Shown piece after piece: positions 1,295 through 61,055 of a stretch of DNA of 64,000 nucleotides. The DNA is from an uncultured Gemmatimonadales bacterium (lineage in GTDB: Bacteria > Gemmatimonadota > Gemmatimonadetes > Gemmatimonadales > Gemmatimonadaceae): contig CAWKNZ010000007.1 of the NCBI GenBank assembly GCA_963851265.1, forward strand, positions 32,001 through 96,000, written 5' to 3'. The notes beneath the pieces are model-generated. The model made no database searches, was not told where the DNA came from, and saw only the letters and a list, made by a program, of their open reading frames with translations. Position 1 is the first letter of the stretch, and every line of letters begins with the position of its first letter. Made by a program: the position numbers and the translations under genes.

Positions 1295-2409
1295 ACGCCC
1301 TCGAACCGTTAGGCGCGGGCGGGTGGCCGCCGGGGCAGGTCGTTCCGGTGGACGAGGCGTCGCGCGTGGGCGAGGCGCGGCGCGCGGCCGCGGGGCTCGC
1401 CTACGCGCTCGGCTTCGCGGACACCGACGCCGCGCGCGTGGCCCTGGTCGCGACCGAACTGGCGACCAACCTGGTCCGGCACGCCGTGGGCGGGCAACTC
1501 GTGGTGCAGGCGGCCGAGGGCCCCGCGGTCGAGCTGCTGGCCGTGGATCGCGGGCCGGGCATCGCCGACGTGCGCCGTGCGATGCGCGACGGCTACTCCA
1601 GCGGCGGCACGTCGGGAACGGGGCTCGGCGCGGTCCGGCGTCAGGCCGACGCCGTCGACCTCTACACGCGGCCGTCGGTGTTCGGTGCCGCGCCCGTCGA
1701 CGGCGAGGGGACGGTGGCGTGGGCGCGGTGCGCGCGTCACAGGCGCGCCGGGGAGCCCGGCCCGGGGGCGGCGGTCGAGGCGACGGCGGCAGTGGCCAAC
1801 GTCGCGGGCGTGTGCCTGCCGGTCGAGGGGGAGCAGGCGTGCGGCGACGCCTGGGCCGCAGCGGTCGCGGGGGCGACGCGCATGCAGCTGCTCGTGGTCG
1901 ACGGCCTCGGGCACGGCCCGGCGGCGGCGGCCGCCGCCGCCGCCGCGGTCGAGACGTTCCGTGCGCACGCGGCCGCGCTCGCGCCGGCGGCGCTCGTCGA
2001 GCAGCTGCACGGCGCGCTGCGGGCGACGCGGGGGGCCGCGCTCGCGGTCGCCCTGTTCGACGGGGCGCGCCGTGAGATACGCTTCGCGGGTATCGGCAAC
2101 GTCGCCGGCGCGGTGTACACGCGCGAGGCGGCGGACCTCGGCCGATGGGGCGCCGCCCACATGATGTCGCACAACGGCACCGTCGGCCACCAGATGCGCA
2201 AGGTGCAGGAACTCGTGTACGCGTGGCCCGTGGACTCGTTCGTCATCTTCCACACCGACGGTGTGCGGTCGCGCTGGCAGCTGGACGCGTACCCGGGCAT
2301 CGGCGCGCGCTGTCCGGCGGTGGTCGCGGGCGTGTTGTGGCGCGACCAGCGCCGCGGGCGCGACGACGCGACGGTGGTCGTCGTGGGCGACGCCGCTCCC
2401 GCCCGGTGA
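1291..2409 (+). CDS. RsbT-like HATPase fused to SpoIIE/PP2C phosphatase (RsbX-like)
   Basis: N-term ELATNL..H, DRGPGI, GTGLGAVRR; C-term CGD, VVDGLGHG, TRGAA, GIGNV, HTDG, RDDATV; GTGA overlap with rsbT. Confidence 0.85.
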   Translation: MNALEPLGAGGWPPGQVVPVDEASRVGEARRAAAGLAYALGFADTDAARVALVATELATNLVRHAVGGQLVVQAAEGPAVELLAVDRGPGIADVRRAMRDGYSSGGTSGTGLGAVRRQADAVDLYTRPSVFGAAPVDGEGTVAWARCARHRRAGEPGPGAAVEATAAVANVAGVCLPVEGEQACGDAWAAAVAGATRMQLLVVDGLGHGPAAAAAAAAAVETFRAHAAALAPAALVEQLHGALRATRGAALAVALFDGARREIRFAGIGNVAGAVYTREAADLGRWGAAHMMSHNGTVGHQMRKVQELVYAWPVDSFVIFHTDGVRSRWQLDAYPGIGARCPAVVAGVLWRDQRRGRDDATVVVVGDAAPAR

Positions 2410-3950
2410 CGCGGGTGAGCACCGCGACGCGGCCGGCGCGCCCGGCCGACGGCAGCGCGACGATCCTCAGCGTCGACCTGCGTTATGCGGAAGACGTCGT
2501 GCTCGCGCGTCAGCGGGCGCGGCAGATCGCCGCGCTGCTCGGGTTCGAGGGGCAGGACCAGACGCGACTCGCGACCGCGGTGTCCGAGATCGCGCGCAAC
2601 GCGTTCCAGTACGCGGGCGGCGGCCGCGTGTCGTTCGCCCTCGCCCCATCCGCGGCCGCGGCCGGCGGCACGGCGGAGAGCGCGGCGGCGAGTCTCGTCC
2701 TTCGCGTCGAGGACTCCGGGCCGGGCATCGCCGAGCTCGACGCGATCCTCGCCGGGCGCTACCGATCGAGCACCGGGATGGGCGCGGGAATCCGCGGCGC
2801 GCGGCGCCTGACGGACACGTTCGCCGTCGAGACCGCGCCGGGGGCGGGGACGCGCGTCGTGATGACGCGGCGCGTGCCGGCGCGCGCGGGCGTGGCGACC
2901 GCCGCGACGCCCGAGACCGCGGCGCGGCTGGCGGAGGCGCTCGCCCGGCAGGTGCCGCGTGGGCCGCTCGAGGAGGTGCAGGCGCAGAACTCCGAGCTGC
3001 TGGCCACGCTCGACGCGCTCCGCGAACGGCAGGCCGACGTCGAGCGCCTCAACGCGGCGCTCGCGGAGGCCAACGTGGACCTCGCGCGCACCAACCAGGA
3101 GCTCGCCGAGACCAACCGCGGCGTGCTCGCGCTCTACGCCGAGCTCGACGACCGGGCCGAGGCGCTCCGGCGCGGGTCGGAGCTCAAATCGCGCTTTCTG
3201 TCGGACGTGAGTCACGAGCTGCGCACGCCGCTCAGCTCGATCGTGAACCTGACGCGCATCCTGGTCGACGACCCCGGCGCGGCGTTCGGCGCGGAGCAGC
3301 GGCGCGCCGTCCAGTTCATCCGGAAGTCGGCACTCGGCCTCACGGAGCTCGTCAACGACCTGCTCGACCTCGCGAAGATCGAGGCGGGGCGGGTCGAGTT
3401 GCGCATCGCGGAGTTCACCGTCGCCGACCTGCTCGCCGCGCTCCGCGGCGTGTGCCGGCCACTCGTGACGAGCGACGCGGTCGCGCTGCGCATAGACGAG
3501 CCCGCGCCGCTGACGCTGCTCACCGACGAGGGGCGGCTGTCGCAGGTGCTGCGCAACCTCGTCGGCAACGCGCTCAAGTACACCGACGCGGGCGAGGTGC
3601 GCGTGACGACGACGCGCGAACCGGACGACGCCGTGTGCTTCGCGGTGCGCGACACCGGAGTCGGCATCCGGCCCGAAGACCTCGAGCGCGTGTTCGACGA
3701 ATTCGTGCAGGTCGAGGGCGCGCACCAGCGGCGTGTGAAGGGGACCGGCCTCGGGCTGCCGCTCTCGCGCAAGCTCGCCGGACTGCTCGGCGGCACCGTG
3801 TCGCTGGCGAGCCACCCCGGGCGGGGCTCGGAGTTCTCGCTGCGCGTGCCGCGCGTGCACCCGTCGTTAGACCCGACGCGCGAGCCGCCGGCGGTCGTGC
3901 GGGAGCTGTCGGAAGCGCGCGGGCAGCTGCGCCGGGAGGCCCAGGCGTGA
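2406..3950 (+). CDS. Histidine kinase with N-terminal RsbT-like HATPase domain, coiled coil, HisKA and HATPase_c
   Basis: DVVLARQRAR..LGF, TAVSEIARNA, EDSGPGI; ELAETNRGVLALYAEL coil; VSHELRTPL; NLVGNALKYT, DTGVGI, GTGLGL; GTGA overlap with upstream gene. Confidence 0.88.
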   Translation: MTRVSTATRPARPADGSATILSVDLRYAEDVVLARQRARQIAALLGFEGQDQTRLATAVSEIARNAFQYAGGGRVSFALAPSAAAAGGTAESAAASLVLRVEDSGPGIAELDAILAGRYRSSTGMGAGIRGARRLTDTFAVETAPGAGTRVVMTRRVPARAGVATAATPETAARLAEALARQVPRGPLEEVQAQNSELLATLDALRERQADVERLNAALAEANVDLARTNQELAETNRGVLALYAELDDRAEALRRGSELKSRFLSDVSHELRTPLSSIVNLTRILVDDPGAAFGAEQRRAVQFIRKSALGLTELVNDLLDLAKIEAGRVELRIAEFTVADLLAALRGVCRPLVTSDAVALRIDEPAPLTLLTDEGRLSQVLRNLVGNALKYTDAGEVRVTTTREPDDAVCFAVRDTGVGIRPEDLERVFDEFVQVEGAHQRRVKGTGLGLPLSRKLAGLLGGTVSLASHPGRGSEFSLRVPRVHPSLDPTREPPAVVRELSEARGQLRREAQA

Positions 3951-59453: not shown

Positions 59454-61055
59454 TCAGGCGGACGCGCGCACGCCGGGCGCGTCCGCGTAGCCCGGGCCAC
59501 GGAAACCTGGGGGCGGCGCGGTCGGTGGCGCGGCCGAGGCGTCCGCGGGATCGACCCGCTGTTCCTCGTGGTACTCGAAGTCGGTATTCACCGCCCACAG
59601 ATCGTGCGACGCCCCACCCATGTTTTCCACGGCGAGCATCGCCGTGTACATGGAGTGATCTTGATTGTTGTACTTGTGCATCCCGTTCCGCCCAACGGTG
59701 TGGAGGTTGGGCACGGCGTCGAGGAGCGTACGCACAACGTCGAGGTGCCCGCGGTAGTAGCTGTCGTAAATCGGATAGGCCTTGGCCATTCGCACGACCG
59801 TACCGTCCACGACGGTGGCGCCGGGTGCGAGGCCGAGCGTCGCGAGCTCTGCGGCGGCGAGTCGGACGAGCGCGGCGTCGTCGCTCGTCCAGAGGCCATC
59901 ACCCTCGAAGCAGAAGTACTCCAGCCCGAGGCACGTGCGTCCAGCATCGGGGACCATCGCGCGGCTCCAGTTGTTGAAGTTCTGGATGCGGCCGACCTTC
60001 ACGCCCGGTGTATGCACGTAGATCCAGTTGTCGGGGAACAGATCCGCTCGGTCCAGCATGAGGGCGACGACGAGGAAGTCGCGGTAGGCAAGCCCCTCGG
60101 CCGCCTCGCGCACGGGCGCGGGCGCCTCGCTGCCGAAGGCGCGCACGAGCGCCCGCAGGTCCGTGGTCGACACCACGTGGTCCGCGGCGAGCCGTTGGGT
60201 GCCGGTCGGGGTCTCCGCAACGACCGCCGTCACCGCACCGTCGCACAGCTCGAGCTTGGTCACGTGGTGCTGCACCAGCACATCGCCCCCCAGCGCCTGC
60301 ACACGCGCCGAGCACGCTTCCCACATCTGGCCGGGGCCGAGGCGCGGGTACTTGAACGTGTGGATGAGCGATTTGATGTCCGTCGCACGCCGGTTGAGGA
60401 CGGTCGCCGACAGGATGGCTCGCGCGAGCGAGAGGCCCTGGATGCGTTGCGCCGCCCACTCGGCACGAATTTCGGTGCATGGCACCCCCCAGACCTTCTC
60501 CGTGTACGTCTTGAAAAAGATCTCGTACAGGCGACGGCCGAACCGGTTGGTCACCCACTGTTCGAACGTCTCCTCGACCGGCGAGGGACGGAGCTGCGCC
60601 TGCGCATAGCTCATCACGATGCGCACGGCGTTCACGACGCCGAGCCCGGACAGCGCGTTCCAGGCACGAAGCGGGTAGTGGAAGTAGCGACCCCCGTAGT
60701 GGATTCGCGAAAGGCGGGGTACGTCGATGAACTCGTCGCCGAGCAGTTCCTCCCACAGGGCCTGAACCGGCGCGATTTTTGTGAAGAAGCGGTGGCCCCC
60801 GATGTCGAAGCGGTACCCCTTGTACCGCGCCGTTTGCGAGATTCCGCCGACGGCGGTGGAGCCCTCGAGTACCGTCACGTGTGCCCCACGCTGAGCGAGC
60901 AGGTAGGCAGCCGTTAGGCCGGCAGGCCCCGCGCCGACGACGATGACGCGGTCTCCCGCGCGAACCCTGCGCACGGAACGGGAAGGTGGTCGGTCCGGAG
61001 GGCCGTCAGATGCAAGTCGCGACCCGGTTGCAGCACCAACGGCCTTCGGTGACAT
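59454..61055 (-). CDS. FAD-dependent oxidoreductase (UDP-galactopyranose mutase/protoporphyrinogen oxidase-like)
   Basis: VGAGPAGLTAA, FDIGGHRFFTK, FFKTYTEKVWG, WAAQRI, AYP.Y, GRNGMHKYNNQDHSM; start uncertain. Confidence 0.85.
   Translation of the reverse strand: MSPKAVGAATGSRLASDGPPDRPPSRSVRRVRAGDRVIVVGAGPAGLTAAYLLAQRGAHVTVLEGSTAVGGISQTARYKGYRFDIGGHRFFTKIAPVQALWEELLGDEFIDVPRLSRIHYGGRYFHYPLRAWNALSGLGVVNAVRIVMSYAQAQLRPSPVEETFEQWVTNRFGRRLYEIFFKTYTEKVWGVPCTEIRAEWAAQRIQGLSLARAILSATVLNRRATDIKSLIHTFKYPRLGPGQMWEACSARVQALGGDVLVQHHVTKLELCDGAVTAVVAETPTGTQRLAADHVVSTTDLRALVRAFGSEAPAPVREAAEGLAYRDFLVVALMLDRADLFPDNWIYVHTPGVKVGRIQNFNNWSRAMVPDAGRTCLGLEYFCFEGDGLWTSDDAALVRLAAAELATLGLAPGATVVDGTVVRMAKAYPIYDSYYRGHLDVVRTLLDAVPNLHTVGRNGMHKYNNQDHSMYTAMLAVENMGGASHDLWAVNTDFEYHEEQRVDPADASAAPPTAPPPGFRGPGYADAPGVRASA

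Follow-up and report, generated by a model that had tools for sequence, protein, structure and literature searches.

The stretch analysed here, which we call the window, is 64 kb of DNA from an uncultured Gemmatimonadales bacterium (G000:C7:32001-96000, where G000 is the source assembly: 4.60 Mb, 12 contigs, 73% GC, 94% complete), and the element in question is a short asymmetric word, GTTAGGC, that is dispersed over it on both strands. The window contains 23 copies, 13 on the + strand and 10 on the - strand, compared to 2.05 expected from dinucleotide shuffles (s.d. 1.32, maximum 6; 0 of 100 shuffles reached 23). Seventeen of the 23 are the octamer CGTTAGGC, for which 1.16 copies are expected and 0 of 100 shuffles reached 17. 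All 23 heptamers and 17 octamers had been located correctly in a preliminary description of this DNA, whose zero-order estimate of about 5-6 heptamers and about 2 octamers also agrees with the genome-wide zero-order expectations of 396.5 and 145.2 when these are scaled to 64 kb. The copies lie as follows.

1308..1314, + strand: octamer CGTTAGGC, frame uncertain, where called genes 908-1291 and 1285-2406 meet
5275..5281, - strand: octamer, intergenic, with genes 3944-5242 and 5322-7820 on either side
5486..5492, + strand: octamer, sense xxG-TTA-GGC (Leu-Gly), in ClpB-type gene 5322-7820
7226..7232, + strand: 7-mer preceded by T, sense Leu-Gly, in ClpB-type gene 5322-7820
10980..10986, - strand: octamer, antisense G-CCT-AAC (Pro-Asn), in GMC oxidoreductase gene 9415-11109
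12303..12309, + strand: octamer, sense Leu-Gly, in Cys/Met pyridoxal phosphate (PLP) enzyme gene 12232-13725
14117..14123, + strand: octamer, sense Leu-Gly, in hydrolase gene 13755-14855
15346..15352, + strand: 7-mer preceded by A, sense Leu-Gly, in ketopantoate hydroxymethyltransferase gene 14846-15760
16246..16252, - strand: octamer, sense Leu-Gly, in beta-lactamase-family gene 15832-17013 (- strand)
18425..18431, - strand: octamer, intergenic, with genes 17229-18251 and 18443-20551 (both - strand) on either side
21148..21154, + strand: octamer, sense Leu-Gly, in gene 20783-23479
23287..23293, + strand: octamer, sense Leu-Gly, in gene 20783-23479
24402..24408, - strand: octamer, sense Leu-Gly, in HlyD-type gene 23460-25433 (- strand)
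26023..26029, - strand: octamer, sense Leu-Gly, in AcrB-type gene 25567-28692 (- strand)
29719..29725, - strand: octamer, sense Leu-Gly on the - strand by local frame analysis, in a stretch with no called gene
31263..31269, - strand: octamer, antisense Pro-Asn, near the 5' end of phosphoenolpyruvate (PEP) carboxylase gene 31144-34098
32931..32937, + strand: octamer, sense Leu-Gly, in PEP carboxylase gene 31144-34098
38160..38166, + strand: octamer, sense Leu-Gly, in weakly called small gene 38080-38328
40539..40545, - strand: 7-mer only, between divergent genes at the left end of the polysaccharide cluster
47315..47321, - strand: 7-mer only, at the 5' boundary of aminotransferase gene 45949-47316 (- strand)
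50248..50254, + strand: 7-mer only, antisense Pro-Asn, in glycosyltransferase gene 49354-50370 (- strand)
57360..57366, + strand: 7-mer only, antisense xGC-CTA-ACx (Leu-Thr), in gene 56972-58240 (- strand)
60913..60919, + strand: octamer near the 5' end of called gene 59457-60953 (- strand), frame uncertain

Fourteen of the copies read as sense xxG-TTA-GGC, three as antisense G-CCT-AAC and one as antisense xGC-CTA-ACx, with five non-coding or uncertain; the three frames and the between-gene copies noted earlier are thus real. Within-gene synonymous codon shuffling (n=200) produced a mean of 0.65 genic copies and at most 4, compared to the 18 present. Eighteen copies fall in the left 38.2 kb and five in the right 25.8 kb, which the preliminary description had called a putative acquired island. 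This split is real and, on the window alone, borderline (binomial p=0.051); the trend is confirmed by a genome-wide gradient with GC content at third codon positions (GC3), given below. Within the window GC3 is 0.78-0.92 on the right and 0.93-0.97 on the left.

Positions 38710-64000 form a polysaccharide or exopolysaccharide (EPS) synthesis cluster with Polysacc_synt_2, a chain-length-type ATPase, a sugar transferase, a DegT aminotransferase, asparagine synthase and glycosyltransferases; it looks acquired, judging by a GC3 clearly below that of the left part. The AcrB-type gene (25567-30400 region) matched its Pfam model only from position 117 onward, and a second open reading frame (ORF; 27794-29044, - strand) overlaps its 5' end in another frame, suggesting a frameshift or an assembly error. 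No gene was called at 28.7-31.1 kb, though local codon scores in this interval suggest coding sequence on the - strand.

The enrichment extends over the whole assembly. G000 holds 1762 copies of GTTAGGC (885 on the + strand, 877 on the - strand) compared to 96-126 expected under order-2 and order-3 Markov models, and 1396 copies of CGTTAGGC compared to 50-58. Ranked with the same models, the word comes first among over-represented words at every k from 6 to 10; a maximum-order Markov ranking hides it because its sub-words carry the signal, and 1762 of the 2470 TTAG tetramers in the assembly are part of it. The preliminary description had proposed a codon-aware null as a check, and when we ran within-gene synonymous codon shuffling genome-wide the enrichment stood: 1298 genic copies (1032 sense and 266 antisense) were present where 70 (44 and 26) were expected. 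This shuffle is conservative, since the rare codons of the word itself stay in the shuffled pool. The base before the word is C in 79% and T in 13% of copies, and the base after it G in 54%, A in 22%, C in 19% and T in 4%; further out, only plain codon periodicity is seen. With bias confined to these two flanking positions, the word is not part of a longer repeat.

Two other words of G000 stand out by their scarcity. CTAG is strongly avoided (1108 compared to about 6043 expected) and AGCGCT is depleted (2466 compared to 3894-4470), while AGCG-N-CT words top the maximum-order Markov list. This CTAG/AGCGCT pattern may be the trace of a restriction system.

Frame counts in G000 rest on our own gene caller, which uses GC3 and codon scores (3786 genes, 89% coding), and are distributed as follows.

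G-TTA-GGC, sense Leu-Gly: 1009 copies
G-CCT-AAC, antisense Pro-Asn: 198 copies
xGC-CTA-ACx, antisense Leu-Thr: 68 copies
GTT-AGG-C, sense Val-Arg: 23 copies
Fully non-coding: 259 copies
Straddling a gene boundary: 205 copies

Each frame is filled well beyond the use of the same codons in other contexts. TTA occupies 1009 of 5802 G-Leu-GGC sites (17.4%) compared to 9 of 3292 without the preceding G, and CCT occupies 198 of 1110 G-Pro-AAC sites (17.8%) compared to 5 of 686. The Leu-Thr form is realised at 68 of 879 sites against 11 of 4393 in other context, and the Val-Arg form at 23 of 3466 against 0 of 8626. The strong raw excess of sense over antisense copies (1032 and 266), which the preliminary description does not mention, arises mostly because Leu-Gly dipeptides are abundant. 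Three quarters of all TTA codons in the assembly (1009 of 1345, 75%) fall in G-TTA-GGC, and a tRNA-Leu(UAA) gene is present. Stop codons are drawn in as well, with 83 of 764 TAG and 127 of 446 TAA stops (28%) lying inside the word.

Non-coding DNA of G000 carries 259 copies where 26-37 are expected from its composition, making the word its top 7-mer, and density is higher there than in coding DNA (0.52 and 0.32 per kb). Spacers between convergent genes are the densest (1.19 per kb, compared to 0.50 in co-directional and 0.33 in divergent spacers, a 3.6-fold difference between the extremes). Non-coding copies show no preferred orientation relative to co-directional neighbouring genes (67:75), and along genes Leu-Gly occupancy is nearly flat at 6.9-12.5% per decile, with no 5' ramp. 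The word is thus enriched on both strands, in all four stop-free frames, in stop codons and in spacers, bearing out the earlier proposal that selection acts on DNA rather than on protein. The force on the word acts at the DNA level and is roughly strand-symmetric.

Word density rises about 4-fold with GC3, from 0.11-0.16 per kb in G000 genes below 0.90 to 0.525 per kb in genes at or above 0.97, and Leu-Gly site occupancy climbs along the same axis from 2.4-3.8% to 15.9%. The direction of this gradient carries weight because the word itself lowers GC3. Island-like DNA is therefore the poorer, in line with the difference between core and accessory DNA that the preliminary description had named as a check. 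Gaps between copies are roughly exponential, with short gaps scarce (5% quantile 324 bp compared to 132 bp for an exponential) and with a few long word-free deserts of up to 45 kb, whose GC3 is slightly lower.

Across 31 related genomes the octamer count ranges from 6 to 6360. All five genomes of the source genus are rich (727-2415 octamers); G012 has 6360, G008, G017, G018 and G030 have 345-605, G016 has 194, and the remaining 20 have 6-65, below the reversed-word control. We then surveyed 401 genomes of the phylum at a completeness of at least 80%, calling a genome rich at 300 or more copies. (Tallies of the 31-genome and phylum surveys, and of the intI and ComEC/DprA surveys below, include the unpublished genomes G011, G078, G117 and G198, all motif-poor; no claim is made on any of them alone.) Rich genomes make up 13 of 95 in the source family, spread over 9 genera; in a second family they number 5 of 166 and belong to a single genus. 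Of the order's third family 0 of 5 were rich, yet G030, rich in the smaller survey, is a member of it. None of 135 genomes sampled from nine other families was rich (maximum 70 copies). Within genus g42, G235, G292 and G396 carry 3479-4141 octamers and G288 only 66. A genome-wide, lineage-restricted word, as first suggested, is hence supported, with a patchy occurrence inside one order.

The most extreme genome shows how far the process can go. In a 195-kb sample of G012 (63% GC) the word reaches 1.42 copies per kb, in a dialect in which CGTTAGG is followed by C (204) or T (53), and the four frames are occupied at 129 of 500, 41 of 96, 49 of 108 and 34 of 153 possible sites (22-45%). The corresponding occupancies in motif-poor genomes are 0/856, 0/130, 0/155 and 1/216 (G006) and 0/568, 1/74, 0/99 and 0/131 (G015). 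Encoded peptides are inflated in the G012 sample: the ratio of observed to expected Pro-Asn dipeptides is 1.68, compared to 1.10-1.18 in five other genomes, and that of Leu-Gly is 1.12, compared to 0.97-1.03 elsewhere. These data indicate a force that is independent of GC content, acts on both strands and is strong enough to alter proteins.

To follow individual sites we compared G000 genes with 400 kb each of two species of the same genus, G004 (204 orthologues) and G001 (186 orthologues). Synonymous sites are saturated at this distance, with four-fold site identity at 63% and 62%, A/T-ending four-fold codons kept at 88 of 1408 and 89 of 1174, and rare Leu codons other than TTA kept at 11 of 341 and 15 of 321 sites for G004 and G001, respectively. 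At conserved Leu-Gly sites G-TTA-GGC is nevertheless kept at 52 of 66 (G004) and 35 of 55 (G001), with odds ratios of 35 and 18. Word sites thus persist between species whose synonymous sites are saturated. Turnover is seen beside this persistence: the word is present only in the relative at 45 (G004) and 34 (G001) sites and only in G000 at 14 and 20, and of the 14 non-coding copies that were aligned only 3 are retained.

Sharing differs between frames, with 88 of 272 sense sites but only 3 of 67 antisense sites shared between species, equally for genes on the + and - strands. This gap, together with the concentration of TTA codons in G-TTA-GGC, would suit a translation-level signal in which the rare codon pair UUA-GGC is selected in the mRNA. 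Leu-Gly sites have an alternative state that accounts for the gap: G-TTG-GGC occurs 453 times compared to 33 with another preceding base, and where G000 has this form the relative carries the complete word in 10 of 24 and 5 of 16 cases, compared to 7-9% for G-CTC-GGC. Leu-Gly sites flicker between TTA and TTG (about 69% TTA; 1009 and 453), with a slow step from TTR to CTN, and this fits the data better than a sense-specific function; Pro-Asn sites flicker directly around an equilibrium of about 18%. We rejected a sense-strand function at the level of RNA or translation because context-matched fractions are equal, the antisense frames are the fullest in G012 and the TTA-TTG flicker explains the sharing gap. 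With antisense frames, stops and spacers as strongly enriched and no ramp at gene starts, selection on the codon pair is largely refuted, and we give it next to no credence.

A short asymmetric, over-represented word also recalls Chi, which guides RecBCD or AddAB, and the KOPS sites read by FtsK, and a guide of this type for recombinational repair or chromosome segregation should be skewed towards one replication strand. Near 1.35 Mb on contig C2 there is a joint peak of cumulative GC skew and of gene and word orientation, with an Xer-type recombinase gene at 1346667-1347503; the switch in GC skew and gene orientation makes the site look like a replication terminus. Within the surrounding 930 kb, 196 copies fall on the leading and 93 on the lagging strand before any correction, as such a guide would predict. 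Controlling for gene orientation and amino-acid availability removes this excess: Leu-Gly occupancy is 9.3% in leading-strand and 7.1% in lagging-strand genes (p=0.16) and Pro-Asn occupancy 8.5% and 13.4% (p=0.24), differences of about 1.3- to 1.6-fold that are not significant, and non-coding copies number 10 and 12. The preliminary description had argued from the lack of strand bias against Chi and KOPS, and this argument holds.

The nucleases that would read a Chi-like word are also scarce. RecC was found in 1 of the 31 genomes (G017:C519:7548-8486), where the match may be foreign because the bin has 4% contamination, and an AddAB-type nuclease in 12 of 31, with no match in G001, G002, G004, G008, G012 and G018, six of the ten rich genomes. 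Lacking intrinsic strand skew, and with RecBCD or AddAB not found in most rich genomes, the word is largely refuted as a Chi- or KOPS-like guide, and we consider such a role highly improbable. G000 itself has an AddA/AddB-like pair (G000:C3:244523-248949), with two PDDEXK_1 matches in open frames of about 770 and about 1850 residues, one with an in-frame TGA. In the same genus G001, G002 and G004 gave no match, and G003 one weaker match, also with an in-frame TGA.

A cis-acting chromosomal site for a DNA-binding protein, nucleoid-associated or self-marking, with each copy kept by weak purifying selection, would account for several of these properties: a sharp specificity of 7-8 bp with defined flanks (C or T before the word and hardly ever T after it), persistence between species, enrichment in long-resident genes and indifference to orientation. 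The filling of 22-45% of codable sites in G012, with its distorted proteome, exceeds any plausible need for binding sites and resembles drive. Turnover is fast among antisense and non-coding copies (3 of 67 shared and 3 of 14 kept), and no candidate protein was identified. On balance we regard such a binding site as unlikely.

A separate clue comes from integrons, whose core sites follow the consensus GTTRRRY / RYYYAAC. GTTAGGC is letter-identical to the R' and R'' core boxes of the attC sites in integrons of this order, a match that the preliminary description does not mention. Motif-poor genomes have clusters of the octamer on a single strand at intervals of ~500-600 bp; these are classical cassette arrays whose attC sites have the form GCCTAAC ... 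c-GTTAGGC and are 72-136 bp long. We collected 37 attC sites with both boxes perfect (L088-L093), from mutually related arrays of only three genomes. Their pooled flanks (C or T before the box; G 57, A 21, C 18 and T 4% after it) are close to those of the word across G000. Since only 16 of the 16384 possible heptamers fit GTTRRRY, the top word is unlikely to match it by chance.

The integrase IntI or a relative might accordingly read genomic copies as core (R-box) sites, with the copies acting as decoys, landing pads or cassette recombination partners. The identity of the boxes, the agreement of the flanks and the low odds of coincidence speak for this possibility. The distribution of intI does not: matches above the family cut-off are present in 16 of the 27 rich genomes and in 29 of the 41 others, and while absence calls are weak because integrons are often lost from metagenome-assembled genome (MAG) bins, IntI today is neither necessary nor sufficient. 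An inverse relation between intI and the word, hinted at by the first 31 genomes, was gone after 37 more. In G000 intI (- strand; G000:C6:2951-6339, locus L087) is split into an N-terminal part matching model positions 2-265 and a C-terminal stub matching 260-313 by an insert of ~2 kb that encodes a large serine recombinase on the + strand (Resolvase, Recombinase and Zn_ribbon_recom), and it is broken in G001 and G012 as well. Next to the split gene are small ORFs of cassette size and a single attC-like pair of boxes (about 1592-1708). In rich G004 one perfect attC-like pair adjoins one intI, and nothing else in its integron neighbourhoods was informative.

Genomic copies also differ from attC and attI sites in their setting. 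They are single boxes in ordinary genes, without a hairpin partner, without conservation past the two flanking bases and with roughly exponential rather than cassette-like spacing, and their abundance is independent of intI. Published genomic attG sites require only GWT (10.1101/2022.09.11.507474), and strand exchange by IntI would not be expected to write the AGGC part. We therefore consider IntI a very improbable reader. A variant that we find speculative and rather improbable is that an import or recombination protein of the rich lineages became tuned to the attC core, favouring cassette-bearing DNA, with genomic copies as a by-product.

We also searched for machinery that could read or write the word. 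G000 encodes ComEC, DprA, two secretins, three HHH_3 (ComEA-type) genes above cut-off and six prepilin-type genes, a core set for natural transformation. Methylation had been offered as one option in the preliminary description; it finds no support, as G000 has no intact gene of the DNA methyltransferase families PF00145, PF01555 or PF02384 (other families and Vsr were not searched). PF00145 and PF01555 gave 0 matches, and PF02384 (N6_Mtase) matched only pieces broken over several frames at contig ends (G000:C7:771474-772495 and C9:923-1858); these represent Type I-like genes in decay or else a misassembled repeat.

These gene searches bear on a further mechanism, a sequence-specific repair or gene-conversion bias in which an enzyme corrects near-cognate heteroduplex towards the word. 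Any conversion bias towards the whole word yields the same statistics as an uptake bias, and the flicker between TTA and TTG in the G...GGC context fits a directional correction at position 4. HIP1 (GCGATCGC), a hyper-abundant octamer of cyanobacteria, provides a precedent, for which Elhai proposed methylation-dependent mismatch repair (PMC4390886). G000 offers no matching partner among the methyltransferase families searched, with a Vsr-type enzyme outside that search. Furthermore, every position of the word is specified and TTR is ~6-fold above expectation in context, so a hotspot at a single position cannot explain the pattern. We judge a repair bias to be distinctly unlikely.

Enrichment, both-strand symmetry, persistence, the GC3 gradient, the effect on proteins and the phylogenetic patchiness of the word are established here. 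All statistics that we tested, including symmetry, frames, island depletion, the proteome effect, 3' spacers, a dialect, and persistence with turnover, are uptake-sequence-like. We tentatively propose, at somewhat less than even confidence, that (C/T)GTTAGGC is a DNA-level self word held at high copy by uptake-sequence-like molecular drive. A protein of a DNA-transfer route would bind the double-stranded word in either orientation; given the presence of its core genes, natural transformation would be the likeliest route. Word-bearing fragments would be imported and recombined more often, and each homologous replacement would slightly favour alleles with the exact word. The word would then spread wherever coding permits, mainly through Leu-Gly (G-TTA-GGC), Pro-Asn (G-CCT-AAC), TAG and TAA stops and 3' spacers, so that most copies would accrue in long-resident genes and fewest in recently acquired DNA. 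Drive rather than selection on single sites would presumably maintain it.

Several observations weigh against this proposal. The data are compatible equally with drive and with weak selection per site. All 31 genomes have ComEC and 28 of them DprA, rich and poor alike, so this machinery is uninformative on the trait. The preliminary description had suggested looking for ComP- or ComEA-like genes co-distributed with the word; when two minor pilins and two ComEA-like proteins of the G000 set were searched in three rich and two poor genomes, none tracked it (the four other pilin-like genes were not tested). Our literature search found no paper on uptake sequences or competence in Gemmatimonad-named taxa. 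That an identical word is found in genera scattered across three families would require repeated loss or horizontal spread of its reader. Poor genomes G006 (400 kb) and G015 (260 kb) hold 3 and 2 copies and no alternative hyper-abundant word, so there is no set of dialects running through the family. Inverted pairs are few (7 of the 19 pairs within 60 bp), whereas close ones typify the terminators of known uptake sequences. Finally, among one-letter variants only GTTGGGC is enriched, 2.2-fold, and known uptake signal sequences are less sharp than a word with so nearly empty a one-off pool.

The closest known systems are the DNA uptake sequences (DUS) of Neisseriaceae and the uptake signal sequences (USS) of Pasteurellaceae. 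In Neisseria a ComP-type minor pilin is the specific receptor. The comparison to DUS and USS made in the preliminary description holds up statistically: GTTAGGC is likewise a short non-palindromic word at ~0.3-1.4 per kb on both strands, with preferred frames and a presence in 3' spacers, it avoids recently acquired genes, it has a dialect in a related genus (G012), and its encoded peptides are inflated, as PMC2817400 describes for those systems. It differs in belonging to another phylum, in its length of 7-8 bp compared to 9-12 bp, in the scarcity of inverted pairs and of one-off variants other than GTTGGGC, in sister genera without dialects and in its coincidence with an integron core site; the four candidate receptors fail to track the trait, and the likeness is drawn from sequence statistics.

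HIP1 resembles GTTAGGC as a hyper-abundant octamer conserved between species with patchy loss; its function was long obscure and is now linked to transformation (PMC4390886, PMC13756078). HIP1 is palindromic with cognate orphan methyltransferases, whereas GTTAGGC is asymmetric, as had been argued from the start against a HIP1 type, and G000 has no intact methyltransferase of the three families. Integron attC and attI sites share the seven letters and similar flanks, with paired boxes ~72-136 bp apart in the arrays of this order. We found no published description of GTTAGGC as a word of any such kind. Of the reading first offered, the lineage-specific, DNA-level, DUS/USS-like word stands, and among the uptake, methylation and nucleoid-protein options that it left, uptake is the one that we tentatively favour.

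The word distorts codon usage (75% of TTA codons), stop contexts (28% of TAA), k-mer-based binning and the detection of horizontal transfer in these genomes. The range of 6-6360 octamers among relatives, together with the contrast inside genus g42, is a natural experiment for finding its reader. To our knowledge, Neisseriaceae and Pasteurellaceae are the only groups with established sequence-specific self tags, HIP1 being a possible third case, and a further one in a soil phylum rich in uncultured members would show that such drives are commoner than thought. Its coincidence with the core site of integrons suggests a connection, open to testing, between the import of DNA and the capture of cassettes. 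If an import protein tuned to the attC core does underlie it, this would be the first sequence-specific tie between natural transformation and integrons, and a third independent origin of uptake-type self tags.

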